A stretch of 64,000 nt of DNA, taken from assembly GCA_017652705.1 (NCBI GenBank), contig JAGCAM010000085.1, forward strand, positions 585 through 64,584, in the 5' to 3' direction. The translations under genes and the position numbers were made by a program. Under the pieces are notes generated by a model that was not told where the DNA came from, ran no database searches, and worked only from the letters and a program-made list of their open reading frames with translations. Below are positions 8,777 to 20,730 of the stretch, piece by piece. How positions within the stretch are numbered: the stretch's first letter is position 1; each line of letters opens with the position of its first letter. The stretch comes from Kiritimatiellia bacterium. Lineage in GTDB: Bacteria; Verrucomicrobiota; Kiritimatiellia; RFP12; UBA1067.

Positions 8777-11340
8777 TGCCGTTTCTTTTCTTCGGTCTCG
8801 AACTCGGGCCGCTTGCCCTTGTACCACCAGAACATGATCGGCGTCGCGATGAAGACCGACGAGAACGTGCCCGACACCACGCCGATCAGCATGATCAGCG
8901 CGAAGTCGAATATCGAACCGTCGCCGAACGCGAACAGCGCCAGCACCGCGAAGAAGGTCGTCACCGACGTGATCACCGTGCGCGAAAGGCACGCGTTGAC
9001 CGCCGCGTTGCAGAGATCGTAGAACGTCAGCCGCTTGTCGTGGCGCAGCATCTCGCGGATCCGGTCGAACACAACGACGGTGTCGTTGACCGAGTAGCCG
9101 ATGATCGTCAGCAGCGCCGTGATCACGATGAGCGACACCTGCCTGCCGCAGAGCGAAAACAGCCCCAGCGACATGAGCGCGTCGTGCGCCAGCGCCACGA
9201 TCGCCCCCAGCCCGAAACCGAACTGGAACCGGAACCCGACGTACGCGAGAATCGCCACGAGCGAGAACAGCACCGCGTACGTGCCCGACCGCTTCAGGTC
9301 CGCGCCTACCATCGAGCCGACCTCCTCGACCGACGCCGAGGTGAACCCCGCCTCGGGGAACTTATCCTGCAGCAGTTTCGTCACGTGCGCGCCGACGTCC
9401 TTGTCTTTCAGCGCCGAGCCCTTCTTCGTCTCGGCGGTCTCGCCGGTCTTCACCAGCAGCGTCGAATCGCCGACACCCTCCTGATACTGGATGACCGCCG
9501 CGTTGTCGAAGCCGTCCAGCGCCTTGCGGATGTCGGTCATCGCGGGTTTCGCGTCCTGCTTGAAGTTGTAGACGATCGAGGTGCCGCCCGTCAGGTCGAC
9601 CGAAAGCACCGACGCGCGGTTGTTCACGAACCGCACCGCGAAAACCGCGAGCGACAGCGCGATGACCGCGAACGACCAGCCGACGGTGTACTTCGTGGCC
9701 TTCATGAAGTCGTACTTCGGATTCTTGAAGACCTGCATCATCTTGAAGGGTTTCGCGCGCCCGGGGTCGACGCAGTGGTCGAAGACGAGCCGCGTCACCA
9801 CCACCGCGGTGAACATCGAAATCACGACGCCCGCCGTCAGCATGATCGCGAAGCCGCGCACCGGCCCGGTGCCCACGATGAAAAGGATGACGCCGGTTAT
9901 GATCGTCGTCAGGTTGGAGTCGAAAATCGCCGTGAACGCGCGCCCGTAGCCGTTGTACACCGCCTCGCCGGCCGTCCTGCCGGCGGCGAACTCTTCGCGG
10001 ATGCGCTCGAAAATCAGCACGTTCGCGTCCACCGCCATGCCGAGCGACAGCACGAGACCCGCGATGCCGGGCATCGTCAGCACCGGCAGTTGCATCGAGC
10101 CCCCGCCGCCCATCGAAGGATCGTGCGCGAAAACCCCCAGGAAGTTCGCCACGAACACGAGCGCCGTCGGCAGCAGCGCGATGTCGAGAAACAGCGCGAT
10201 GTCCGCCACGAGACCGGAACGCCAGTAATAAATGAACATGAACACCGCGATGAGGGCGAACCCGAGAACCGCCGCCGTCTTGCCCGCCGCGATCGCGTCT
10301 TCGCCGACCGTCGGCGCCACCGAAGTCTCCGCGAGAACCTTCATCGGCGCCGGCAGCGCGCCCGCGTTCAGCTCGTCTGCCAGCTTCTTGGCGCTTCTCG
10401 CGTCGAAGCGCCCCGTAATCTGGCCGGACGTGCCGATTTCGCTCTGGATGACCGGCGCGGATATGAGCTGGTCGTCGAGGATGATCGCCAGCTGGCGGCC
10501 GCGGTCGCTCGGGTTTTTGGGCCCGTGCGCCTTGTAGTTGCGCGTGAGCGTCGAAAACTTGCGCCCGCCCTCGGCCGACATCCTGAAACCGATCGAAAGA
10601 CCGCCCGACGTCTGGTCGCGCTCGACCATCGCCGAAACGAGATCTTCGCCCGTCACGCGCGGCTCCGTCGAACGCGCCACGAAATTCGGCGAATACGTGC
10701 CGTCCCCGTTGTCTTCAAGCATGAAACTGTAACGGGCGTCGGGCGTCTCGAACCGCGCCAGCCTCGCCGCGTACCCCTTGTTGGTGGACACATCCGCCCA
10801 GTTCTCCGCCCGCGCGTAGCCGTTGCCGCTCTTCTTGTAGCCCTCCGGCGCGATTTCCTTCGACAGCAGCTTCGCCACAAGCTGGTCGTTCTTCGGGTGC
10901 GTCAGCCGGAATTCAAGAAACGCCGCGTGCTGCAGCGACGCCTTAGCCTCCTTGCGCGTGCGCTCGTCGGCGCCGGGCAGCTGCACCAGCAGCCGGTGCC
11001 CCTTGCCCTTCATCCCCTGGATCACCGGCTCGTTGGTGCCCATCGCGTCGACACGCCGCCGGATAACCTGGATGATGCGGTCGTCGCAGCCCGCGAGAGT
11101 CTCCTCCATCTTCTTCTCGACCGCCCCGACCGTGTTGGTCAGACCGGGATTCGACGCGATTATCGACTCGCGCAGCTTATCTTCGTCCACCCCGAGGGTG
11201 AACGACGTGCCGCCGTTCAAATCCAGCCCAAGACGGATCTTCTCCGACGGCGGATTGCACACGTAGAATGATATGACGGCGATGAGCGCCAGAACCAACC
11301 ATTTCCACAAATTGTTGCGGCCAACAGAATCTTTAGACAT
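8773..11340 (-). CDS. secDF: protein translocase subunit SecDF (fused)
   Basis: 855 aa with two 6-TM blocks and a large periplasmic domain. SecD- and SecF-like TM motifs are present (LDLNGGTSF, GIAGLVLSLGMAVDANVLIFERIREE, YSVNDTVVVFDRIRE). Confidence 0.95.
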   Translation of the reverse strand: MSKDSVGRNNLWKWLVLALIAVISFYVCNPPSEKIRLGLDLNGGTSFTLGVDEDKLRESIIASNPGLTNTVGAVEKKMEETLAGCDDRIIQVIRRRVDAMGTNEPVIQGMKGKGHRLLVQLPGADERTRKEAKASLQHAAFLEFRLTHPKNDQLVAKLLSKEIAPEGYKKSGNGYARAENWADVSTNKGYAARLARFETPDARYSFMLEDNGDGTYSPNFVARSTEPRVTGEDLVSAMVERDQTSGGLSIGFRMSAEGGRKFSTLTRNYKAHGPKNPSDRGRQLAIILDDQLISAPVIQSEIGTSGQITGRFDARSAKKLADELNAGALPAPMKVLAETSVAPTVGEDAIAAGKTAAVLGFALIAVFMFIYYWRSGLVADIALFLDIALLPTALVFVANFLGVFAHDPSMGGGGSMQLPVLTMPGIAGLVLSLGMAVDANVLIFERIREEFAAGRTAGEAVYNGYGRAFTAIFDSNLTTIITGVILFIVGTGPVRGFAIMLTAGVVISMFTAVVVTRLVFDHCVDPGRAKPFKMMQVFKNPKYDFMKATKYTVGWSFAVIALSLAVFAVRFVNNRASVLSVDLTGGTSIVYNFKQDAKPAMTDIRKALDGFDNAAVIQYQEGVGDSTLLVKTGETAETKKGSALKDKDVGAHVTKLLQDKFPEAGFTSASVEEVGSMVGADLKRSGTYAVLFSLVAILAYVGFRFQFGFGLGAIVALAHDALMSLGLFSLCGRQVSLIVITALLTIIGYSVNDTVVVFDRIREMLRHDKRLTFYDLCNAAVNACLSRTVITSVTTFFAVLALFAFGDGSIFDFALIMLIGVVSGTFSSVFIATPIMFWWYKGKRPEFETEEKKRQ

Positions 11341-13066: not shown

Positions 13067-14176
13067 CTACAGCCGCGACTTGAAATCATCGTAGCCGAAG
13101 CGTTTTAAGACCTTTACTGATCCCAGGCGAGTTCGGAGCGCGATGGACGGCAGCGGCATGCCGTTGAATGTGTTGTTCTTCACCATCGTGTAGATCGCCA
13201 TGTCCTCGAAGACGAGTTCGTCCCCGACCTTGAGCTGACGCGCGAACGAATAGTCTCCGATTACGTCCCCCGCGAGGCAGGTCGGTCCACCAAGCCGGTA
13301 GGTGTACTTCTTCTCGCCCGGCTGGCCCGATCCCCTGAGCGGCGGACGGTACGGCATTTCGATAACATCCGGCATGTGGCACTCCGCCGATGCATCGAGA
13401 ATCGCAATCGGCATTCCGTAGTCGACGATCTCCCGCACCGTCGTCACCAGCGTCCCCGCATTTAGCGCAATCGCCTCGCCGGGCTCGAGATACACCTCAA
13501 GGTTGGGATGACGCCGACGGAAGTCCTTTAGCGTCTTCACCAGCAATTTGACGTCGTATCCCTTGCGGGTGATGTGGTGTCCGCCCCCGAAGTTCACCCA
13601 CTTCATCTGCGGCAGGAACTCGCCGAACTTCGCCTCGAACACTTCGAGCGTCCGCGCCAGCACGTCCGCACCCTGCTCGCACATGGTGTGGAAATGCAAT
13701 CCCTCCACGCCGCGCAAGTCGTCCGCCTTGAGGAATTCCCGCGGCACTCCCAACCGGGAGCCAGGCGCACACGGATTGTAGATGTCGTGCTCGATCTCGC
13801 TGTAGCCGGGATTCACCCGCAGTCCGAGGCTCGCCTTGCCACGGCAGACGCGCCGCGCAAGCGCGAGCTGCGGCAGCGAATTGAGGACGATGTGATCCGA
13901 ATACTTGAGGACTTCCCGCAGTTCCGACACCGTAAAGGCCGGATTGAACACATGGTTCTCCCGACCTGGCATCTCCTCCGCCGCGAGCCGCGCCTCGTAG
14001 ACGCCGCTGGCGGTGGTGCCGTCAAGGTGCTTGGCGACAAGCGGATAGGTCGCGTAGCACGAAAACGCCTTCTGCGCAAGGAGAATCTTCACCCCCGCGC
14101 GGCTGCGCACCGAGGCGAGCAGCTCGAGGTTGCGCCCGAGCAACGCCTCGTCGATCACGTAGTACGGGGTCTTCAC
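13067..14176 (-). CDS. nspC: carboxynorspermidine/carboxyspermidine decarboxylase
   Basis: VKTPYYVIDEALL...HFHTMCEQ...NFGGGHHIT...GGPTCLAGDVIGDY has typical CANSDC (alanine racemase-fold PLP decarboxylase) features. GTG start 14176 overlaps the upstream stop (GTGA). Confidence 0.9.
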   Translation of the reverse strand: MKTPYYVIDEALLGRNLELLASVRSRAGVKILLAQKAFSCYATYPLVAKHLDGTTASGVYEARLAAEEMPGRENHVFNPAFTVSELREVLKYSDHIVLNSLPQLALARRVCRGKASLGLRVNPGYSEIEHDIYNPCAPGSRLGVPREFLKADDLRGVEGLHFHTMCEQGADVLARTLEVFEAKFGEFLPQMKWVNFGGGHHITRKGYDVKLLVKTLKDFRRRHPNLEVYLEPGEAIALNAGTLVTTVREIVDYGMPIAILDASAECHMPDVIEMPYRPPLRGSGQPGEKKYTYRLGGPTCLAGDVIGDYSFARQLKVGDELVFEDMAIYTMVKNNTFNGMPLPSIALRTRLGSVKVLKRFGYDDFKSRL

Positions 14177-15516
14177 GGAACCTTCACCGGATCGAAGTTT
14201 TCCTTCCAGGGGAGTCCGCGGCGCTTCAGTTCCGCCATGAACGGATCGGGATCGAACTCCTCGCAGGTGTGGACGCCCTTCGCCGTCCACTTTCCGTCGA
14301 GGAACATCTTCGCGCCAATCATCGCGGGGACGCCGGTCGTGTAGCTGATCGCCTGCGAGCCGACTTCGCGGTAGCACTTCTGGTGGTCGCATACGTTGTA
14401 CACGTAGTAGTCCACCGTCTTTCCGTCCTTCTTGCCGTGGAAGATGCAGCCTATGTTCGTCTTGCCCTTGGTGCGCGGACCGAGCGACGCGGGATCGGGC
14501 AGCAGCGTCTTGAGGAATTCGATGGGGACGATCTTGTGCCCCTGGAAGTCGACGGGGTCGATACGCGTGAGCCCCACGTTCTCAAGGCACTTGAGGTGCG
14601 TGAGATAGCTCTGACCAAAGGTCATGAAGAAGCGGATGCGCTTGATGCCCTTCAAGTTGCAGCCGAGCGACTCGAGCTCCTCGTGATGGAGCAGGTACAT
14701 GTCCTTCTTGCCGACCTTGTCGAACACGTATTCGCGCTTGATGGCCATCGGGTCCGTCTCCACCCACCAGCCCTTGTCGAACGCTTTTTTGTATTTGACC
14801 TTCACGCCGTGGGCGTCCTTCGACTTCTTCCCCTTCTCGCTCGTCCAATACGAGCCCTTCGCGGCGACTTCGCGGAGGTTGATCTCGGGGTTGAAGTTCG
14901 TGGCGAAGGGATAGCCGTGGTCCCCGCCGTTACAGTCGAGGATGTCCAGCGTCTCAATGGTGTCGAAGTAGTGCTTCTGCGCGTAGGCGGAGAACACCTG
15001 GGTGACGCCGGGGTCGAATCCGCAGCCGAGGATCGCGGTGAGCCCTGCCTGCTCGAACTTCTTGCGGTACGCCCACTGCCACGAATACTCGAAGTGCGCC
15101 TCGTCCGGCGGCTCGTAATTCGCGGTGTCGAGGTAGCTTACGCCGGCCTCGAGGCAGGCGTCCATGATCGCGAGGTCCTGATAGGGCAGCGCGATGTTCA
15201 TCACCAGGTCAGGCTTGAACTTGCGGATGAGCGCCACGAGGCGCGGCGTATCCATCGCGTCGATCTGGGCGGTCGAAACACGGGTTGAGATGTTGCGGGG
15301 TTGAGATGTTGAGATACGTGTCGAGGCGTTGAGATGCTGAGAAATCGAGTTGGGGGAGTACCACGGGCGGGACATGATGTCCTTGCGGATGGCCTTGCAC
15401 TTTGATTCAGTGCGCGAGGCGATCAGCAGGTGCCCGAAGGTCTCCGGGTCCTGGCACATCTTCGCGGCGGCGACGCCGGCGACACCGCCGGCACCGATGA
15501 GGAGCACTCTGCTCAT
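14173..15516 (-). CDS. carboxynorspermidine/carboxyspermidine dehydrogenase (saccharopine dehydrogenase family), carrying a repeat-derived in-frame insert
   Basis: MSRVLLIGAGGVAGV Rossmann start, then YLDTANYEPPDEAHFEYSWQWAYRKKF, GCGFDPGVT and ISYTTGVPA. The SPNSISQHLNASTRISTSQPRNISTRVST segment is encoded by the CTCAAC repeat. Confidence 0.9.
   Translation of the reverse strand: MSRVLLIGAGGVAGVAAAKMCQDPETFGHLLIASRTESKCKAIRKDIMSRPWYSPNSISQHLNASTRISTSQPRNISTRVSTAQIDAMDTPRLVALIRKFKPDLVMNIALPYQDLAIMDACLEAGVSYLDTANYEPPDEAHFEYSWQWAYRKKFEQAGLTAILGCGFDPGVTQVFSAYAQKHYFDTIETLDILDCNGGDHGYPFATNFNPEINLREVAAKGSYWTSEKGKKSKDAHGVKVKYKKAFDKGWWVETDPMAIKREYVFDKVGKKDMYLLHHEELESLGCNLKGIKRIRFFMTFGQSYLTHLKCLENVGLTRIDPVDFQGHKIVPIEFLKTLLPDPASLGPRTKGKTNIGCIFHGKKDGKTVDYYVYNVCDHQKCYREVGSQAISYTTGVPAMIGAKMFLDGKWTAKGVHTCEEFDPDPFMAELKRRGLPWKENFDPVKVP
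15281..15357. repeat. GTTGAGATG short-repeat cluster (sense CTCAAC arm) inside the dehydrogenase CDS
   Basis: The plus strand reads GGGTTGAGATGTTGCGGGGTTGAGATGTTGAGATACGTGTCGAGGCGTTGAGATGCTGAGAAATCGAGTTGGGGG. Confidence 0.85.
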
Positions 15517-15539
15517 GGGCGTGAATCCTTTCTTTTGTT

Positions 15540-15588
15540 GTTGACAACGACCTGAATTCCGTACTCCACCCGGAGCAGTTCAAAGGCG
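15540..15588 (-). promoter_or_regulatory. conserved 5' leader element, copy A (upstream of the dehydrogenase gene)
   Basis: Sense CGCCTTTGAACTGCTCCGGGTGGAGTACGGAATTCAGGTCGTTGTCAAC begins a few nt after the TATAAT box. It is near-identical to copy B at 19916-19966. Confidence 0.55.
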
Positions 15589-15593
15589 AGTGT

Positions 15594-15602
15594 ATTATAT
15601 CA
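15594..15602 (-). promoter_or_regulatory. extended -10 box TGATATAAT for the dehydrogenase-nspC unit
   Basis: The minus strand reads AATTTGATATAATACAC about 80 nt upstream of ATG 15516. Confidence 0.5.
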
Positions 15603-15694
15603 AATTCTCGTCCCGCTCATCTGGGAACTCTGACGTTTCGCGTAATCTCGAAGGCGGGATTCTGCTGCCGTGTCATGCCTCGGCGACGGCGTTA

Positions 15695-16246
15695 TCATCG
15701 CGCCAGCTTCACTTTCAATATCCAGCCGCCGCCGCCGGGCTTGCGGCCGGCCGGGTCGGGATGCGTCCAGTGGACAACACCGCCGCGCTCGTTGTCGATG
15801 TACTCGCCTCTGAAGATCACCTCGTCGCCCTGCTTCACGTCTTTGAGCCGCTCCCACTTGTCGATATTGTTGGCGATGAGAACCGTGCGTCCGGCCGGAT
15901 CGGCGACCAGGAGACGCTGGTGGCGCGGCGGATTGATGTCGTCCGGCAGCACCTTCTTGACAGTTCCCCGGCCCTCGATCCAGCTGCGGTTCTTAAAATC
16001 AGCGAAGAAGCACGGATCGGGAATCGTTGCCGTAATCTTCCTCACCCCGCGAACCACGGTGTTCGTTCTCGTTACCGGCGGCGTTCCCCGCACCGGTCTC
16101 CGGCCCGACAACCTCGCCGACGCGTCTTCACGTCCGCGCGCTTCCGTCGGATAGCCGTTGCGAAAGCTCCAATGATGCGTCACCGCGCCAATGCCCATCA
16201 CCAGCGCGAAAGCCGCCCACGCAAAAATCCAGGTCTTCGTTTTCAT
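15695..16246 (-). CDS. DUF3465-family membrane-anchored protein
   Basis: An N-terminal TM helix, then GTVKKVLPDD...HQRLLV...VLIANNID...GDEVIFRGEYIDNERGGVVHWTH. This matches the DUF3465 pattern as I recall it. Confidence 0.7.
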   Translation of the reverse strand: MKTKTWIFAWAAFALVMGIGAVTHHWSFRNGYPTEARGREDASARLSGRRPVRGTPPVTRTNTVVRGVRKITATIPDPCFFADFKNRSWIEGRGTVKKVLPDDINPPRHQRLLVADPAGRTVLIANNIDKWERLKDVKQGDEVIFRGEYIDNERGGVVHWTHPDPAGRKPGGGGWILKVKLAR

Positions 16247-16253
16247 GCCGTCT

Positions 16254-16262
16254 ATTATAGCA
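16254..16262 (-). promoter_or_regulatory. extended -10 box TGCTATAAT only 7 nt before the DUF3465 ATG (possible leaderless transcript)
   Basis: The minus strand reads TGAATTGACACGAACTGTGCTATAATAGACGGCATG within the 30-nt speB/DUF3465 gap. Confidence 0.35.
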
Positions 16263-16276
16263 CAGTTCGTGTCAAT

Positions 16277-17236
16277 TCATGCGGGCACCGATTTATCGCA
16301 CTGATCATTCTGAGGAAACCAACGTCCCGCCGCACCGGACAGGGCAAGGAGGCACTCGCGGAGGAACTTGCAGGCGAGGGCCGTGGAACGTCCCGATGGA
16401 TCGAGCGAGGGATTGAGTTCCACATTGTCGAGCGCGACCACATGGAAACGCGTGAGAATGTCCGTGATCGCGCAACGCAGTTCGTCGTAGTGCAGTCCGC
16501 CCGCCTCCTGGGTGCCCGTGCCCGGGAAGTCTGCGGGATCGAGCACGTCGAGGTCGATGGTGAGATAGACGGGGGTTGAGACGCTGAGCCGCTGAGGGGT
16601 TGAGACATCGCAACAACTCAACTTCTCAGCACTGTTCCAACTCAACTTCTCAACACCTTTACAAGTAAACTTCTCGGCAATCACATGCCCCGCCTTCATG
16701 AAGGCGAACTCTTCGCGGGTGCCGGAGCGGATTCCGAACTGGAAGATACGGCCGTCGCCGAGGAGGTCATAGCATCGCCGCATGACGGTGGCGTGCGAAA
16801 GCGTCTCGCCGAGGTATTCCTCTCGGAGGTCGGCGTGGGCGTCGAAGTGGATGATGCGCAGGCCGGGGAACCGCTTGAACGCGGCGCGGACCGCCCCGAG
16901 GGTGACGAGGTGCTCGCCGCCGAGCATGAACGGAATCTTGCCGTCGTCCAGTATCTCGCCTGCACGCGTCTCAATGGCCTCGAGCTGTCTCGCCGGAGAG
17001 CCGAACGGAAACTCCAAGTCTCCTGAATCGTAGAACGGGAAGTCTTCGAGGTCACGGTCTTGATACGGCGAGTACGTCTCGATGCCGTAGCTCTCGGCAC
17101 GAATCGCCGCAGGGCCGAACCGCGTTCCAGGACGGTAAGACGTCGTGGCATCCGCCCCCGCGCCGAACAGCACGACCTTCGCCCGATCATAGTCGTACGT
17201 CGCCCCGATAAAAACATTCCTGTTCGCTTTTTCCAT
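16277..17236 (-). CDS. speB: agmatinase-family ureohydrolase (agmatinase or aminopropylagmatine ureohydrolase) with palindromic repeat insert
   Basis: GGEHLVT, HFDAHADL and LTIDLDVLDPADFPGTGTQEAGG are arginase-fold Mn-binding motifs. ATG 17236 has AGGAG 5 nt upstream; an alternative GTG is at 17242. Confidence 0.9.
   Translation of the reverse strand: MEKANRNVFIGATYDYDRAKVVLFGAGADATTSYRPGTRFGPAAIRAESYGIETYSPYQDRDLEDFPFYDSGDLEFPFGSPARQLEAIETRAGEILDDGKIPFMLGGEHLVTLGAVRAAFKRFPGLRIIHFDAHADLREEYLGETLSHATVMRRCYDLLGDGRIFQFGIRSGTREEFAFMKAGHVIAEKFTCKGVEKLSWNSAEKLSCCDVSTPQRLSVSTPVYLTIDLDVLDPADFPGTGTQEAGGLHYDELRCAITDILTRFHVVALDNVELNPSLDPSGRSTALACKFLRECLLALSGAAGRWFPQNDQCDKSVPA
16570..16677. repeat. imperfect palindromic GTTGAG/CTCAAC element inserted in frame in speB
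   Basis: The plus strand reads GGGGGTTGAGACGCTGAGCCGCTGAGGGGTTGAGAC-atcgcaaca-ACTCAACTTCTCAGCACTGTTCCAACTCAACTTCTCAACACC. It encodes about 35 extra residues (AEKFTCKGVEKLSWNSAEKLSCCDVSTPQRLSVSTP) just before the conserved VYLTIDLDVLDP. Confidence 0.8.
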
Positions 17237-17239
17237 TTT

Positions 17240-17271
17240 CACTCCTCAGCCACTCAACGCCTCAACCTCTC
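17240..17271. repeat. CTCAAC repeat arm in the speE-speB spacer (sense GTTGAG; supplies the speB SD)
   Basis: Sense strand reads TGA-gatgacGAGAGGTTGAGGCGTTGAGTGGCTGAGGAGTGaaaATG. Confidence 0.8.
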
Positions 17272-17277
17272 GTCATC

Positions 17278-18141
17278 TCACTTGGTCTCCTCTTCCCTGA
17301 GGATGTCAAGCACGTAGTTGGGCAGGGCGAAGGCGCCGCGGTGGAGGGCGGTGTTGTAGTAGCGCGTGGTAATGCGCAGCTTGTTCCAACGCGCCTCGTC
17401 AAGGTTGCCGATGGGATGGTACTTCTTTGAGGCGAAGCCGAAGAGCCAGTGCCCCGAAGGATAGCTGGGGATGTGACACTGGTAGACGGTGGAGACGGGG
17501 AACTCCACCGCGATATGGCGGTGGGCATCGCGCACGGAACGCTGGTGCGCCGCGTAGAACGGCGACTCGTGCTGGTTGATGAGGATGCCGTCGTCGCGCA
17601 GCGCCTTGTAGCAGGTGCCGTAGAACTCGCGGGTGAAGAAGCCTTCGGCGGGTCCGTAGGGATCGGACGAGTCGACGATGATGAGGTCGTACTCGGCTTT
17701 CTTGCCGCGCACGTATCTGAGGCCCTCCTCGAACCACACCTTCACCCGCCTGTCCTTGAGCTTCGAGGACGTGAACGGCAGAAACTTCTTCGCCAGCAGC
17801 ACAACGTGCTTGTCCACCTCCACAAGGTCGATGGACTCTATGGCGCGGTACTTGACGAGTTCGCGCACCGTGCCGCCGTCGCCGCCGCCGATCACCAGCA
17901 CGTTCTTGACCCGCGGGTGCACGGCCATCGGCACGTGGGTGATCATCTCGTGGTAGATGAATTCGTCCTTTTCGGTGATCATCAGTCCGCCATCCAGAAC
18001 CAGCACGCGGCCGTAGGCGGGCGTGTCGAAGATGTCAATCTGCTGTACAGGGCTTTTTCTGGAAACGAGCTGCTCGCTCACCTTCATTGAGAAGCGCACG
18101 TCGCGCGTATGTTCGTCGGTGTACCAGAGTTCGGTTTGCAT
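17278..18141 (-). CDS. speE: spermidine synthase / aminopropyltransferase
   Basis: VLVIGGGDGGTVREL, DLIIVDSSDPYGPAEGFFT and YPSGHW motifs; 287 aa. Confidence 0.92.
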   Translation of the reverse strand: MQTELWYTDEHTRDVRFSMKVSEQLVSRKSPVQQIDIFDTPAYGRVLVLDGGLMITEKDEFIYHEMITHVPMAVHPRVKNVLVIGGGDGGTVRELVKYRAIESIDLVEVDKHVVLLAKKFLPFTSSKLKDRRVKVWFEEGLRYVRGKKAEYDLIIVDSSDPYGPAEGFFTREFYGTCYKALRDDGILINQHESPFYAAHQRSVRDAHRHIAVEFPVSTVYQCHIPSYPSGHWLFGFASKKYHPIGNLDEARWNKLRITTRYYNTALHRGAFALPNYVLDILREEETK

Positions 18142-18189
18142 GGGAGGTTGAGTGGTTGAGTTGTTGAGCGGTTGAGGGGTTGAGGGGGG
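18142..18189. repeat. five tandem GTTGAG units (sense CTCAAC arm) between the 4-helix-bundle ORF and speE
   Basis: The plus strand reads GGGAGGTTGAGTGGTTGAGTTGTTGAGCGGTTGAGGGGTTGAGGGGGG. It exactly fills the gap between the speE ATG and the TAA of the small ORF. Confidence 0.9.
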
Positions 18190-18390
18190 TTACACTTTTT
18201 TCTGGCGGAACGGTTCGCCGGAAAGTGATTGCATGAGGCGAAAGAGCTTAACCTGCACACGTTCAAGATCGCCATATATAGCACCAAAGTCCGACGAAAA
18301 CAAGCGAGCAGCGGTCAAGGCGTAGATCTTTTTAACTATCGCCCGTCCGTCCTTCCATATCTCAATATCTTCAAACTTTCTGAATGCCAT
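18190..18390 (-). CDS. four-helix-bundle protein (23S rRNA intervening-sequence protein / Avd-like family), shortened 66-aa copy
   Basis: MAFRKFEDIEIWKDGRAIVKKIYALTA resembles the family N-terminal helix (F.DL.VW..A..L...IY). Family members as I recall are about 115-125 aa, so this copy looks internally deleted. GC is about 46% by my count against GC-rich neighbours. SD GAGGAGA is upstream. Confidence 0.5.
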   Translation of the reverse strand: MAFRKFEDIEIWKDGRAIVKKIYALTAARLFSSDFGAIYGDLERVQVKLFRLMQSLSGEPFRQKKV

Positions 18391-18413
18391 TTCTCTCCTC
18401 AACTTCTCAACGC
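18391..18413. repeat. CTCAAC repeat arm (sense GTTGAG) between the speA stop and the 4-helix-bundle ORF
   Basis: Sense strand reads TAG-GCGTTGAGAAGTTGAGGAGAGAA-ATG. It is an inverted repeat of 18142-18189. Confidence 0.85.
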
Positions 18414-19895
18414 CTACGCAAGCACATTGATGTATTCGAGCGACATGTCCTCGGTGCCGGTCATGAAGCAACCCTTCTCCTTCGCGAAGAGAATGTGCGC
18501 CAGCACGTCCGGGGTAATCCGTTCGCCGGGGGCGACGATCGGGATGCCGGGCGGGTAGCTCATCACGAACTCGCCGGCGATCTGTCCCGTGGACTCCCGC
18601 ATCGCCACGCGGCGCTTTTTCGCGTAGAACGCCTCCTGCGGGGGCATGGCGATGACGGGGTCAATGTACTCGTGGTCGAAGAGCCCGGCGGGGCTCTTCT
18701 CGCGCTGGCGCTTGATCTCCTCGAGGGCGGAGATAAGGCGCTCGACGTCCATCATCCGGTCGCCGTTGGAGATGATTGCGAGCAGGTTGCCGATGTCGCC
18801 GAACTCGATCTGGATGCCGTAGTCGTCGCGGAGGTAGTCGTAGACCTCGATGCCGGCGAGCCCGATGTCGCGGGTGTGGACGGAGAGCTTCGTGCGGTCG
18901 AAGGCGAAGACGGTGTCGCCGTTGACGAGCTCGGGGCCGAACGCGTGGTACCCGCCGAGCTCGTTGATTTCGTCGCGCGCGTAGTCCGCGAAGTCCATCG
19001 TCTGCTGGTACATCTGCTTCCCCCGGAAGAACAGATTGCGGCGCGCGATGTCCAGCGACGAAAGCAGCAGGTAGGAGGCGGAGGTCGACTGTGTGAGGGT
19101 GATGACCTGGCGGACGTAGTCCGGATTCACCGGGCGGCGCGTGAGCAGGACCGAGCTCTGCGTTAGCGAGCCGCCGGTCTTGTGGATGGACGCCGCGGAC
19201 ATGTCGCACCCGGCGGCCATCGCGGAGACCGGGAGCTCGCCGTGGAAATAGAAGTGGGTGCCGTGCGCCTCGTCCGCCAGCACCGTCATACCCGCCTCGT
19301 GGGCGATTTTGACAATCTCCACGAGGTTGGAGCAGATGCCGTAGTAGGTGGGGTTGTTGACCAGGACCGCCCTGGCGGACGGATGCTCGGCGACTGCCTT
19401 GCGGACGTCGGCGACGCTCATTCCGAGCGGGATGCCGAGCTTCCGGTTGATGCCGGGGTTGATGTACACCGGAACCGCCCCGCTGACGACCAGCGCGTTG
19501 ATGGCGCTGCGGTGGACGTTGCGCGGCATGATTATCTCGTCGCCGCTCTTGACGGTGGCCATGATCATCGCCTGCACCGCCGAGGTGGTGCCGTTGACCA
19601 TGAAGAACGCGTCGTCGGAACCGAACGCCTCCGCCGTCAGCTCCTGCGCCTCGCGGATGACGGACACCGGATGCCCGAGGTTGTCGAGGGGTTTCATGGA
19701 GTTTACGTCCATCGCCATGGCCCGTGCGCCGAGATACTCGGTAAGCTCGGGATTCCCCCGACCGCCCTTGTGGGCGGGGACGTCGAAATGCGCGAGGCGG
19801 TTGATGCGCTGCGCATCAAGAGCCTCCGCCAGCGGCACGCGCCGCTGGCGCGCCGATACCTCGTTTTCCGCTTTCGCGGATACAGAACGTGCCAT
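18414..19895 (-). CDS. speA: PLP-dependent arginine decarboxylase (Orn/Lys/Arg decarboxylase family, Bacillus SpeA-type)
   Basis: 493 aa; FMVNGTTSAVQAMI, ADEAHG and SIHKTGGSLTQSS (PLP lysine region). The operon context with speB favours arginine as substrate. Confidence 0.85.
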   Translation of the reverse strand: MARSVSAKAENEVSARQRRVPLAEALDAQRINRLAHFDVPAHKGGRGNPELTEYLGARAMAMDVNSMKPLDNLGHPVSVIREAQELTAEAFGSDDAFFMVNGTTSAVQAMIMATVKSGDEIIMPRNVHRSAINALVVSGAVPVYINPGINRKLGIPLGMSVADVRKAVAEHPSARAVLVNNPTYYGICSNLVEIVKIAHEAGMTVLADEAHGTHFYFHGELPVSAMAAGCDMSAASIHKTGGSLTQSSVLLTRRPVNPDYVRQVITLTQSTSASYLLLSSLDIARRNLFFRGKQMYQQTMDFADYARDEINELGGYHAFGPELVNGDTVFAFDRTKLSVHTRDIGLAGIEVYDYLRDDYGIQIEFGDIGNLLAIISNGDRMMDVERLISALEEIKRQREKSPAGLFDHEYIDPVIAMPPQEAFYAKKRRVAMRESTGQIAGEFVMSYPPGIPIVAPGERITPDVLAHILFAKEKGCFMTGTEDMSLEYINVLA

Positions 19896-19915
19896 TCAAT
19901 CAACCCGTTGAGTAA

Positions 19916-19966
19916 GTTAACAACAGCCCGAATTCCATACTCCCCAGAGGAGCAGTTCAAGGGTCG
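19916..19966 (-). promoter_or_regulatory. conserved 5' leader element, copy B (upstream of speA)
   Basis: Sense CGACCCTTGAACTGCTCCTCTGGGGAGTATGGAATTCGGGCTGTTGTTAAC directly follows the -10-like box. It is a paralogue of 15540-15588. Confidence 0.55.
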
Positions 19967-19970
19967 CGTA

Positions 19971-19979
19971 AGAATATCA
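19971..19979 (-). promoter_or_regulatory. candidate -10 region TGATATTCT for speA
   Basis: The minus strand reads TTGTCA-N18-TATTCT, aligned with the TGATATAAT family. Confidence 0.4.
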
Positions 19980-20031
19980 TAATCAGCCGTCTCTTGACAA
20001 GGGGGTAATTTTATTTGCCGCGTAGTTTTCA

Positions 20032-20073
20032 TTGCGGAAGTAAACGAACCAGATCGTGCATTCACTTCCGCAA
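20032..20073. repeat. 10-bp perfect inverted repeat TTGCGGAAGT...ACTTCCGCAA (22-nt spacer)
   Basis: Read directly at 20032-20041 and 20064-20073. Confidence 0.8.
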
Positions 20074-20102
20074 ACCACCGATGATTTGGAATCTGGCACC
20101 CC

Positions 20103-20139
20103 GCCACCCTTATCCCGGATTTTCCGGGATAAGGGTGGC
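20103..20139. repeat. perfect 17-bp stem / 3-nt loop hairpin
   Basis: GCCACCCTTATCCCGGA-ttt-TCCGGGATAAGGGTGGC. No flanking T/A run on either strand, so it is not a classical terminator. Confidence 0.9.
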
Positions 20140-20271
20140 ACAAAGCGTACGGCAGCCCGTGGCGGCCGCCGCGTTCCGCGAATACCATTTTTGCCGCGCT
20201 GTGTGGGAATCTGCGCGGCGGAGGTGATCCACAAGTGCACGGGGACGTTCCTATGCAACTATAGCGGCAAA

Positions 20272-20326
20272 GGGGTACCCCAAAATCGAAAAGTGGGTAC
20301 CCCAAAATCGAAAAGTGGGTACCCCC
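20272..20326. repeat. 2.5 copies of a 22-bp direct repeat, each carrying the palindrome GGGTACCC
   Basis: GGGGTACCCCAAAATCGAAAAGT / GGGTACCCCAAAATCGAAAAGT / GGGTACCCCC. Palindrome centres are 22 bp apart. Confidence 0.9.
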
Positions 20327-20677
20327 GCGAGCGGCTAAAGCCATGCGAGTGTTCTCACGCCTCTATTCTGCCCGCCCGCAACAAATTCGCCCTTCGCGTT
20401 CACCAGCTAGCGACTGCCGTCAATCAGGCCATATCTCCACGCATACACCCGATTTTTGACGGCATTTCCTGCTGAACCTCTGAGCGGCCAGGGAGCGCGA
20501 AGCTTCGGGCGCAGCGGCAGCGGAGCCTTCTTTGCAGGCCATCGGAGTTGACTTCGGGGCTGGGCGTGGACGGGTGTGCCCGTTATGCGCCACGACGGCC
20601 TGGCTGGCACGGAAATCGGCGTCGAAAATATTTTTCGGCCAATGTTTACAGGGGGATGGCGCACTTTCGGGGTAAAC

Positions 20678-20730
20678 TATCCCGTAAAAATCGGGATAAG
20701 CGTGGGCGGCCGCCGGGGTGGCGGCCGGCC
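20678..20730. repeat. degenerate second copy of the TATCCCG...CGGGATAAG hairpin plus a GGCGGCCGCC-type GC palindrome
   Basis: TATCCCG-taaaaat-CGGGATAAGCGTGGGCGGCCGCCGGGGTGGCGGCCGGCC. Compare with 20111-20175. Confidence 0.6.

Follow-up and report, generated by a model that had tools for sequence, protein, structure and literature searches.

Octamer arrays in a Kiritimatiellia polyamine locus: probable arms of a DNA-level hairpin element, one pair enclosing a PF05635 remnant

In a 64-kb window of a Kiritimatiellia genome (the whole stretch of DNA analysed here), the genes for polyamine synthesis carry six clusters of the hexamer GTTGAG or its complement CTCAAC, spaced at 8 nt. These clusters are best read, with a probability of roughly 0.55, as arms of a DNA-level hairpin-array element of the same kind as short tandemly repeated repetitive sequences, or long-unit simple sequence repeats (STRR/LSSR), and intervening sequences (IVS). 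Such an element would consist of a G-rich run of 7–9-nt units followed by a reverse-complement C-rich run, so that either strand can form a hairpin. Array hairpins of this build are common in many bacterial phyla, and a subset of them carries a PF05635 gene in the loop.

Applied to the present locus, this reading would place between speA and speE a decayed cassette made of a G-arm, a deleted PF05635 gene and a C-arm. Derivatives without an open reading frame (ORF) would occupy the speE–speB junction and, in frame, permissive loops of the agmatinase and of a dehydrogenase. The arrays would grow and shrink by slippage, their units being homogenised at the DNA level, and copies would spread mainly over short distances. 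Selection would act as a filter and no more, with inserts persisting only between genes or in disordered loops. As by-products, the G-arms would then bring stops in every one of the three frames and a GAGGAG just ahead of ORF66 and speB, and the C-arm a G-free leader for speE. No dedicated operon function is required.

Six clusters of one unit in a polyamine locus

The source material is the window itself; relatives and other loci were analysed as fetched contigs (L-numbers), in which gene calls are ORF-based and approximate. Homologs assign the contig to Kiritimatiellia. In the window, ORFs and homolog annotation place all genes of the polyamine locus on the minus strand, and the repeats lie among them. 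Below, a G-arm or C-arm is a run of GTTGAG or CTCAAC units, respectively, as read on the transcript.

Genes:
18414–19895, minus, speA-like Orn/Lys/Arg decarboxylase
18190–18390, minus, ORF66, 66 codons
17278–18141, minus, speE, spermidine synthase
16277–17236, minus, speB, agmatinase
15695–16246, minus, DUF3465 gene
14173–15516, minus, dehydrogenase of the saccharopine-dehydrogenase family (Sacchrp_dh; carboxynorspermidine-dehydrogenase-like)
13067–14176, minus, carboxynorspermidine-decarboxylase-like gene

Repeats:
19900–19912, minus, TCAAC-GG-GTTGA mini-palindrome just ahead of the speA ATG
18391–18413, minus, cassette G-arm, transcript reads GCGTTGAGAAGTTGAGGAGAGAAA
18142–18189, minus, cassette C-arm, CTCAAC five times at an 8-nt period (TRF), as read on the transcript
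17240–17271, minus, solitary G-type array, two GTTGAG units and GCTGAGGAG, in the gap from the speE stop to the speB start
16571–16656, minus, ORF-less hairpin, G-arm then C-arm, in frame in speB at about residues 198–221, encoding GVEKLSWNSAEKLSCCDVSTPQRLSVST
15281–15357, minus, solitary C-type array, about seven units of CTCAAC and variants, in frame in the dehydrogenase

The octamer unit is spelt GTTGAGNN or CTCAACNN. An earlier note, made from the letters of this DNA, had located the clusters by eye and had seen nothing comparable in the other ~59 kb; all are present, and the contrast with the remainder of the window is confirmed by counts. Both strands of the 64 kb hold 43 copies of GTTGAG, against 27.4 expected from shuffles. 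Nineteen of the 43 GTTGAG/CTCAAC hexamers fall within 15284–19912, which is 7% of the window and where the density outside predicts 1.9 (Poisson P = 2e-13). When the whole window was scanned, every same-strand pair of units no more than 24 nt apart was found inside the locus; the sole other close GTTGAG pair (28072/28111) is 39 nt apart. Tandem Repeats Finder (TRF) reports 8-nt arrays in the window only at 15284–15315, 16577–16596 and 18146–18184, with 4.0, 2.5 and 4.9 copies, respectively. Six clusters of one unit are hence packed into 4.6 kb, with none in the remaining 59 kb; three are placed at gene junctions and three inside ORFs. An assembly artefact is rejected: L001, an ENA scaffold with a catalogue entry of its own (possibly of the same sample), is identical to the window over the 4.8-kb locus, and contig L002, from a different sample, has related arrays.

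On the plus strand the arms run G15284 [G16575 C16617] C17253, then G18147 C18398. In transcript order, a G-arm of two units is followed by ORF66, a C-arm of five units, speE, a G-arm, the start of speB, the speB hairpin (G then C) and the dehydrogenase C-arm. The junction arrays fit tightly between the genes. The cassette G-arm fills the space between the speA stop (18414–18416) and the ORF66 ATG (18390–18388) and gives the Shine–Dalgarno sequence GAGGAG, and the solitary G-type array provides that of speB. Both had been proposed before, although the unit that serves speB is GCTGAGGAG and not GTTGAGGAG. The C-arm fills the space from the ORF66 stop to the speE ATG; as had been noted, it offers no Shine–Dalgarno sequence, and it contains no G, but the description of it as pyrimidine-only does not hold. 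Since speE lacks a Shine–Dalgarno sequence in L002 and L209 too, the C-arm did not remove one. The mini-palindrome at 19900–19912, formerly counted with the clusters, consists of single units within a conserved 5' leader (see below) and reads ATAAAC..GTTGA in L002; it is therefore not an array and probably not a member of the repeat family.

Half of the clusters are translated inside enzymes. In basal agmatinase homologs the insertion site reads KTLPEL-SFPEGTPVYLT and is free of any insert, and the window, L002 and several other lineages differ there in insert length and sequence. The DNA of this loop consists of G-arms then C-arms in the window, of a drifted version in L002 and of a degenerate C-arm in L003. 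In an AlphaFold model of the agmatinase (pTM 0.81) the insert has no secondary structure, with pLDDT below 50 at residues 200–214, and it is predicted to be a disordered loop. Unrelated palindromes resembling repetitive extragenic palindromic (REP) sequences occupy the same loop at about 1180–1290 of contig L206 (GACGGCGAGACGCCGTC and two copies of GCAATGGCGTCCTCGCCATTGC, translated as ...DVAMASSPL... twice); the loop thus appears to accept several kinds of hairpin DNA.

In the dehydrogenase, the C-array adds about 25 residues (...SQHLNASTRISTSQPRNISTRVS...), and CTCAAC is read in three phases, as the earlier note had seen. The array is shorter in L002 and absent in L003. Its site, PWF-AEKGV-STKITTAQ, is an insertion hot spot that holds other units in other lineages: in L209, SHPLTLSS is encoded three times by 11 copies of TCTCACCC, and in L210 the loop reads RGSWSVVR...HEPRTTNHEPR, from an in-frame GTGGTYC/CACGAAC heptamer hairpin. 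As with the agmatinase, basal homologs have no insert here, and what the loop holds changes from lineage to lineage. The L210 hairpin has a folding energy of −41 kcal/mol (z −3.2), and the neighbouring decarboxylase gene contains another two heptamer arrays.

Reading frames constrain which arm can be tolerated. Three units of a perfect G-array suffice to give TGA in each of the three frames, and a C-array contains no stop in any frame; this accounts for the C-type sense strand of the long arrays seen inside ORFs (dehydrogenase of the window, L002 and L209; speB insert of L003). In the speB insert of the window the eight-nt register is held, and exactly two units, those in the TGA phase (phase 2), are mutated, to GGAACA and GTTGCG. 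The corresponding third unit of the L002 insert is GTTGCG as well. On the sequence level, this pattern constitutes direct evidence that the speB ORF is kept open and that the insert is translated.

PF05635 cassettes and related arrays in other bacteria

ORF66 has no direct match in Pfam or NCBIfam, and a word-indexed homolog search returned ORF66 alone. An exhaustive phmmer search with ORF66 matched three proteins (P0126, P0134 and P0137) that are themselves PF05635 members at ~1e-35. In the alignment about 35 N-terminal and about 30 C-terminal residues are retained and about 60 central residues are gone. ORF66 is hence an internally deleted PF05635 gene, coding for a remnant of a 23S rRNA intervening-sequence / Avd-like four-helix-bundle protein. 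Solved structures of the family include 2GSC (XCC0516) and 2RLD, with five chains per PDB entry. In L002, the closest relative (agmatinase 88% identical), speA is followed by speE after a gap of 28 nt that holds no ORF, just a decayed 8-nt periodic C/T-rich stretch. ORF66 and its G-arm therefore represent an insertion, or a loss in the relative.

The same layout as in the window, namely gene, GTTGAG array, PF05635 gene, CTCAAC array, gene, recurs in L119 (Desulfobacteraceae) and L058 (Bacteroidales). A metagenome scan with the PF05635 alignment gave 80 loci, 74 of them with usable flanks. When the 150 nt upstream and downstream were compared (inverted-complement score ≥30), inverted complementary flanks were found at 47 of the 74 genes; the direct-orientation control gave 13 and shuffled flanks gave 1. 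In 63 cassettes G outnumbers C in the 5' arm, and in 9 it is the reverse. Each cassette has its own unit, mostly a heptamer, and arrays with a period of 6–10 lie within 200 nt of the PF05635 gene upstream in 53 of 71 cases and downstream in 45 of 71. Cassettes are co-oriented with both neighbours in 27 of 42 cases, and the gap between the upstream stop and the PF05635 start has a median of 58 nt.

Species-representative genomes were scanned for three consecutive GTTGAGNN units, that is for one unit only. GTTGAG arrays were found in at least 120 contigs of Bacteroidota, Verrucomicrobiota, Planctomycetota, Kiritimatiellota and Desulfobacterota; further array-bearing groups are Acidobacteriota, Gemmatimonadota, Ignavibacteria, Cyanobacteria and a few others. 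Often they lie beside arrays of other 7–9-nt units. Among the matches listed, none of the 120 array loci encodes a homolog of any of six proteins of the polyamine locus, and a polyamine-specific motif is thereby refuted.

Where arrays are paired, the G-arm precedes the C-arm in 30 cases and follows it in none among the matches listed (P = 9e-10). This order reads alike on either strand. The arms in the window follow it too, in nested form: the balanced pattern ()(()) that the earlier note had read from the transcript is real and reflects this general rule. In Haliscomenobacter and Saprospiraceae, a 51-nt palindromic core, GCTRCCGCGAGCGAYTTAGACAAGGACWTTGTCAAAATCGCTCGCGGYAGC, lies between the arms in seven copies or more, always flanked by GTTGAG and CTCAAC arrays. 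Both orientations are found, as expected of a dispersed element.

51-nt core:
L009
L061, three copies
L087, two copies
L088

Closer to the window, confinement to polyamine genes recurs with other units. The speE–speB junction array is also present in L002, where the TGA stop of speE lies inside a unit; in L003 the same junction holds a different 8-mer array, GTTTGGGT. The gap before speE contains six copies of TCTCACCY in L209 at the place of the CTCAAC units of the window. The carboxynorspermidine decarboxylase homolog of L209 has four in-frame inserts of the CGAATCGA/TCGATTCG family, two of which are hairpins of −55 and −58 kcal/mol; the agmatinase loop of L209 also carries the CGAATCGA/TCGATTCG unit. 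At least a dozen arrays lie in the L209 operon and four elsewhere, at two junctions. L210 has four arrays in 15.5 kb, all in the dehydrogenase and decarboxylase genes, and none in the 10 kb of flanking housekeeping genes. L003 retains one junction array and a decayed insert. Across these lineages the units differ, and the loops and junctions recur.

Array sites in relatives:
L209, 14646–16097, 14362–14391, 10172–10259 and 12846–12892
L210, 10151–10227, 11866–11892 and 12298–12339

Weighing the explanations

Several observations weigh against a hairpin-array element. For this genome (64-kb window), the analysis turned up neither an empty site with a target duplication nor a transposase nor any identical copy at a distance, so mobility is inferred and not demonstrated. 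The earlier suggestion of a miniature mobile repeat system agrees with the evidence: with arms in many phyla, with multi-copy hairpins that have conserved cores and with flanking of PF05635 genes. Moreover, a purely selfish element does not predict the preference for polyamine genes that recurs in Kiritimatiellia (window, L002, L003, L209 and L210). A PF05635 gene adjoins just 4 of the 120 GTTGAG-array loci among the matches listed. In PF05635-rich metagenomic loci, arrays also occupy 10 of 24 other intergenic gaps, a small number of gaps, and array density there is 2.0 per kb (24 gaps) versus 4.0 per kb beside PF05635 genes. It may be that hairpins already in place simply receive the PF05635 gene or retain it. 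That PF05635 genes explain all arrays is contradicted by the 4/120 adjacency among the matches listed and by the arrays in other gaps; what can be said most safely is that a PF05635 gene typically lies in an array hairpin's loop, and that hairpins lacking an ORF, together with single arms, outnumber such cases. As to the polyamine preference, three causes are possible. Ancient seeding followed by local spread and unit turnover is ranked first, and CTCAAC versus CTCACC at the same junction fits it. Relaxed constraint, with two polyamine routes coexisting in these genomes, comes next, and retention for polyamine-dependent control last.

It is rather improbable that the arrays are ordinary long-unit microsatellites, which arose in place by slippage from chance seeds, with neither element nor mobility, and which PF05635 genes merely adjoin. 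Such an origin is consistent with unit number and spelling differing between the window and L002 at orthologous sites, with the one-base difference at the junction before speE (CTCAAC in the window, CTCACC in L209), with the frequency of arrays in intergenic gaps that have no PF05635 gene, and with published work, which handles such arrays as simple sequence repeats (SSRs; PMC4692102). Slippage alone, however, does not explain the 30:0 order of arms among the matches listed. Nor does it account for one unit standing inverted on both sides of 47 of 74 PF05635 genes, for six one-unit clusters in 4.6 kb with none in the other 59 kb, for multi-copy cores between identical arms, or for complete hairpins inside ORFs. 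A role in RNA was the other possibility raised early on, as an operon-specific structure on a single polycistronic RNA. In its strongest form, the arrays would have been co-opted as regulatory RNA of polyamine synthesis, with polyamine-stabilised hairpins or arm pairing lowering translation or triggering cleavage, as feedback. This is quite unlikely, even though arrays are concentrated in the polyamine genes of five Kiritimatiellia contigs, with few or none in the flanks, the same loops and junctions hold different units, intact ORFs contain very stable hairpins (−38 to −58 kcal/mol, z −3.2 to −8.8), and arms are complementary across speE (31 nt at 81%). The DUF3465 gene and the dehydrogenase gene each have an extended −10 promoter of their own; the arms are therefore not all on one RNA but are spread over at least two transcription units. 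Across phyla the same arrays stand in unrelated operons, several inserts consist of one unstructured C-arm each, and a separate conserved leader is already a candidate regulator.

Structure tests point in the same direction. As RNA, the speB hairpin of the window is stable (−38.2 kcal/mol, z −3.6), but its L002 counterpart is not (z +0.3), so conservation of arm pairing in relatives, which had been named as a test, breaks down at the closest one. The whole cassette folds with z −0.4, and RNA of the dehydrogenase C-arm is unstructured. Across 74 cassettes, arm mismatches comprise 111 would-be G–U and 132 would-be C–A pairs on the sense RNA; there is no G–U excess. At gathering thresholds, Rfam detects two tRNAs only in the whole window and nothing at the arrays or the leader, and in E-value mode 15200–20100 gives just a chance match to Esr41 (E = 0.077). 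Fold, mismatch and Rfam results therefore provide no evidence for a conserved RNA fold. A conserved RNA structure is rejected on the L002 and cassette z-scores and the lack of a G–U excess; given also the other operons and transcription units, the operon-specific structure of the earlier note is not supported. That the arms are complementary appears to stem from the construction of the DNA element. More doubtful still is that the arms are RNase III processing stems as in IVS of 23S rRNA, by which the cassette would be cut from the speA–speE transcript and the stability of the flanking cistrons uncoupled. A PF05635 gene between inverted arms is indeed the anatomy of an rRNA IVS, and the minimum-energy fold of the cassette joins the two G units to a pair of C units on the far side of ORF66. 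Yet that fold is no better than shuffled, the arms are unequal (two versus five units), and cleavage inside speB would destroy the message.

The hairpin-array element can also be extended into a bolder and decidedly tentative proposal, unlikely as it stands. Hairpins with a PF05635 gene in the loop would be an unrecognised class of self-propagating cassettes across phyla, of the same kind as ORF-bearing 23S rRNA IVS. The protein would act on the units, and the G-then-C order would come from the making of the arms, for example by reiterative G-rich 3'-end extension on both sides of a break or insertion; preferential retention in polyamine genes of Kiritimatiellia would come about through duplexes that polyamines stabilise and that act back on the expression of these genes.

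Known systems, neighbouring features and significance

The IVS of 23S rRNA in Leptospira and Coxiella are PF05635/S23p ORFs enclosed by inverted repeats. The cassette resembles them in having a PF05635-family ORF within inverted repeats able to form a long stem, inserted in a host transcript. It differs in that the host is an mRNA operon (speA–speE) and not helix 25 or 45 of 23S rRNA, the window containing no rRNA and the cassette so lying outside that location; its arms are tandem octamers and its ORF is internally deleted. Rickettsia palindromic elements (RPE) and other repeats resembling MITEs (miniature transposable elements with inverted repeats) are short palindromes inside ORFs that are translated as tolerated extra loops. 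With RPE the present inserts share the translation of short palindromic repeats inside ORFs, but there is no sequence relation, and here the arms are made of tandem units whose period is not a multiple of three. In Borg elements, by comparison, in-ORF repeat units are reportedly multiples of three. Inverted arms, a MITE feature, are present; no duplication is visible at the speA–speE junction relative to L002 and L209, no transposase was identified, and neither a target duplication nor a parent transposon is known for these arrays. REP sequences and bacterial interspersed mosaic elements (BIMEs) are imperfect palindromes that go with a RAYT gene in the genome and have a conserved 5' GTAG, which the units here lack.

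The closest likeness is to STRR/long-unit SSRs, the cyanobacterial STRR heptamers among them (PMC4692102), which are built of head-to-tail 7–9-nt units, form convergent opposite-strand pairs able to make stem-loops, lie mostly just past gene ends and vary in length between close relatives. The clusters likewise consist of head-to-tail units, within the 5–11-nt range and in three or more copies (TRF), include convergent pairs and differ in length between close relatives. They differ in their octamer unit and in the share of them that is translated; since this unit has no G-tracts, the G-quadruplex formation stressed in PMC4692102 does not apply. Rehm et al. 2015 (PMC4692102) described GGGAATC heptamer arrays in 'convergent' pairs in Xanthomonas and Nostoc, PF05635 genes being unmentioned. 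According to the supplement of that paper, a GGGAATC array of Xanthomonas campestris overlaps the start codon of XCC0516 (PF05635, PDB 2GSC), directly after bccP. XCC0516 provides a link between PF05635 and arrays in a culturable organism. Borg elements have fast-evolving direct tandem repeats in and between genes that add disordered protein segments, much as here; inverted arms and PF05635 genes are not mentioned in the abstract of that source (PMC9879509).

The earlier note could not assign the repeats to a described family. They are assignable, as an octamer member of the long-unit tandem arrays (STRR/LSSR, Xanthomonas 'convergent' heptamers), with one copy an IVS-protein cassette. STRR/long-unit SSRs, convergent heptamers and rRNA intervening sequences with PF05635 ORFs are known already. 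Searches of the full-text literature turned up no account of arrays on the flanks of PF05635 genes, which does not prove novelty. In the searchable literature there appears to be no description of PF05635 genes being placed systematically in array hairpins, of an absolute G-then-C order for this unit or of repeated in-frame colonisation of polyamine enzymes.

Other features of the locus were observed alongside. A shared 5' leader, GAACUGCUCC-N3-4-GGAGUAYGGAAUUCRGG, lies just past the extended −10 promoters of speA and of the dehydrogenase gene. RNAalifold on five sequences predicts a hairpin and an outer 3-bp stem with two compensatory pairs. The leader has no Rfam match; from its sequence it is a candidate cis-regulatory element of polyamine genes.

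Shared 5' leader:
window, 19916–19975 and 15540–15600, minus
L002, 1035–1080 and 5105–5155
L209, about 9925–9965

The DUF3465 gene stands between speB and the dehydrogenase gene in the window and L002, not so in L003 and L209. Ahead of it, TGCTATAAT ends 7 nt before the ATG (window 16246–16275), which suggests a leaderless or near-leaderless transcript. The agmatinase of the window has a C-terminal extension of about 15 residues (…AAGRWFPQNDQCDKSVPA; window 16277–16340), missing in homologs, that overlaps a terminator-like hairpin at 16343–16326. Upstream of speA, gene orientation switches in a divergent intergenic region (window 19980–20720), which contains a perfect 17-bp palindrome at 20103–20139, a related copy at 20678–20714 and a 22-nt tandem repeat (×2.6) at 20269–20325. 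The TTATCCCGG palindromes in this region were rejected as dispersed sites, their core not being enriched in the window. The sign of the GC skew changes between about 14 and 20 kb of the window.

For decades STRR/long-unit SSRs have been listed with neither function nor origin attached to them, and the many PF05635 proteins have no known role outside diversity-generating retroelements; the present locus ties the two together. It also yields testable rules: a C-arm is always preceded by its G-arm, the hairpin loop contains the PF05635 gene in the orientation of the host operon, and C-arms are open in three frames. Repeats of this type can be written into enzymes as disordered loops, and within one clade a single pathway, that of the polyamines, has been hit repeatedly. 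If the elements are mobile or regulatory, they would explain a large class of bacterial repeats and many low-complexity inserts in proteins.

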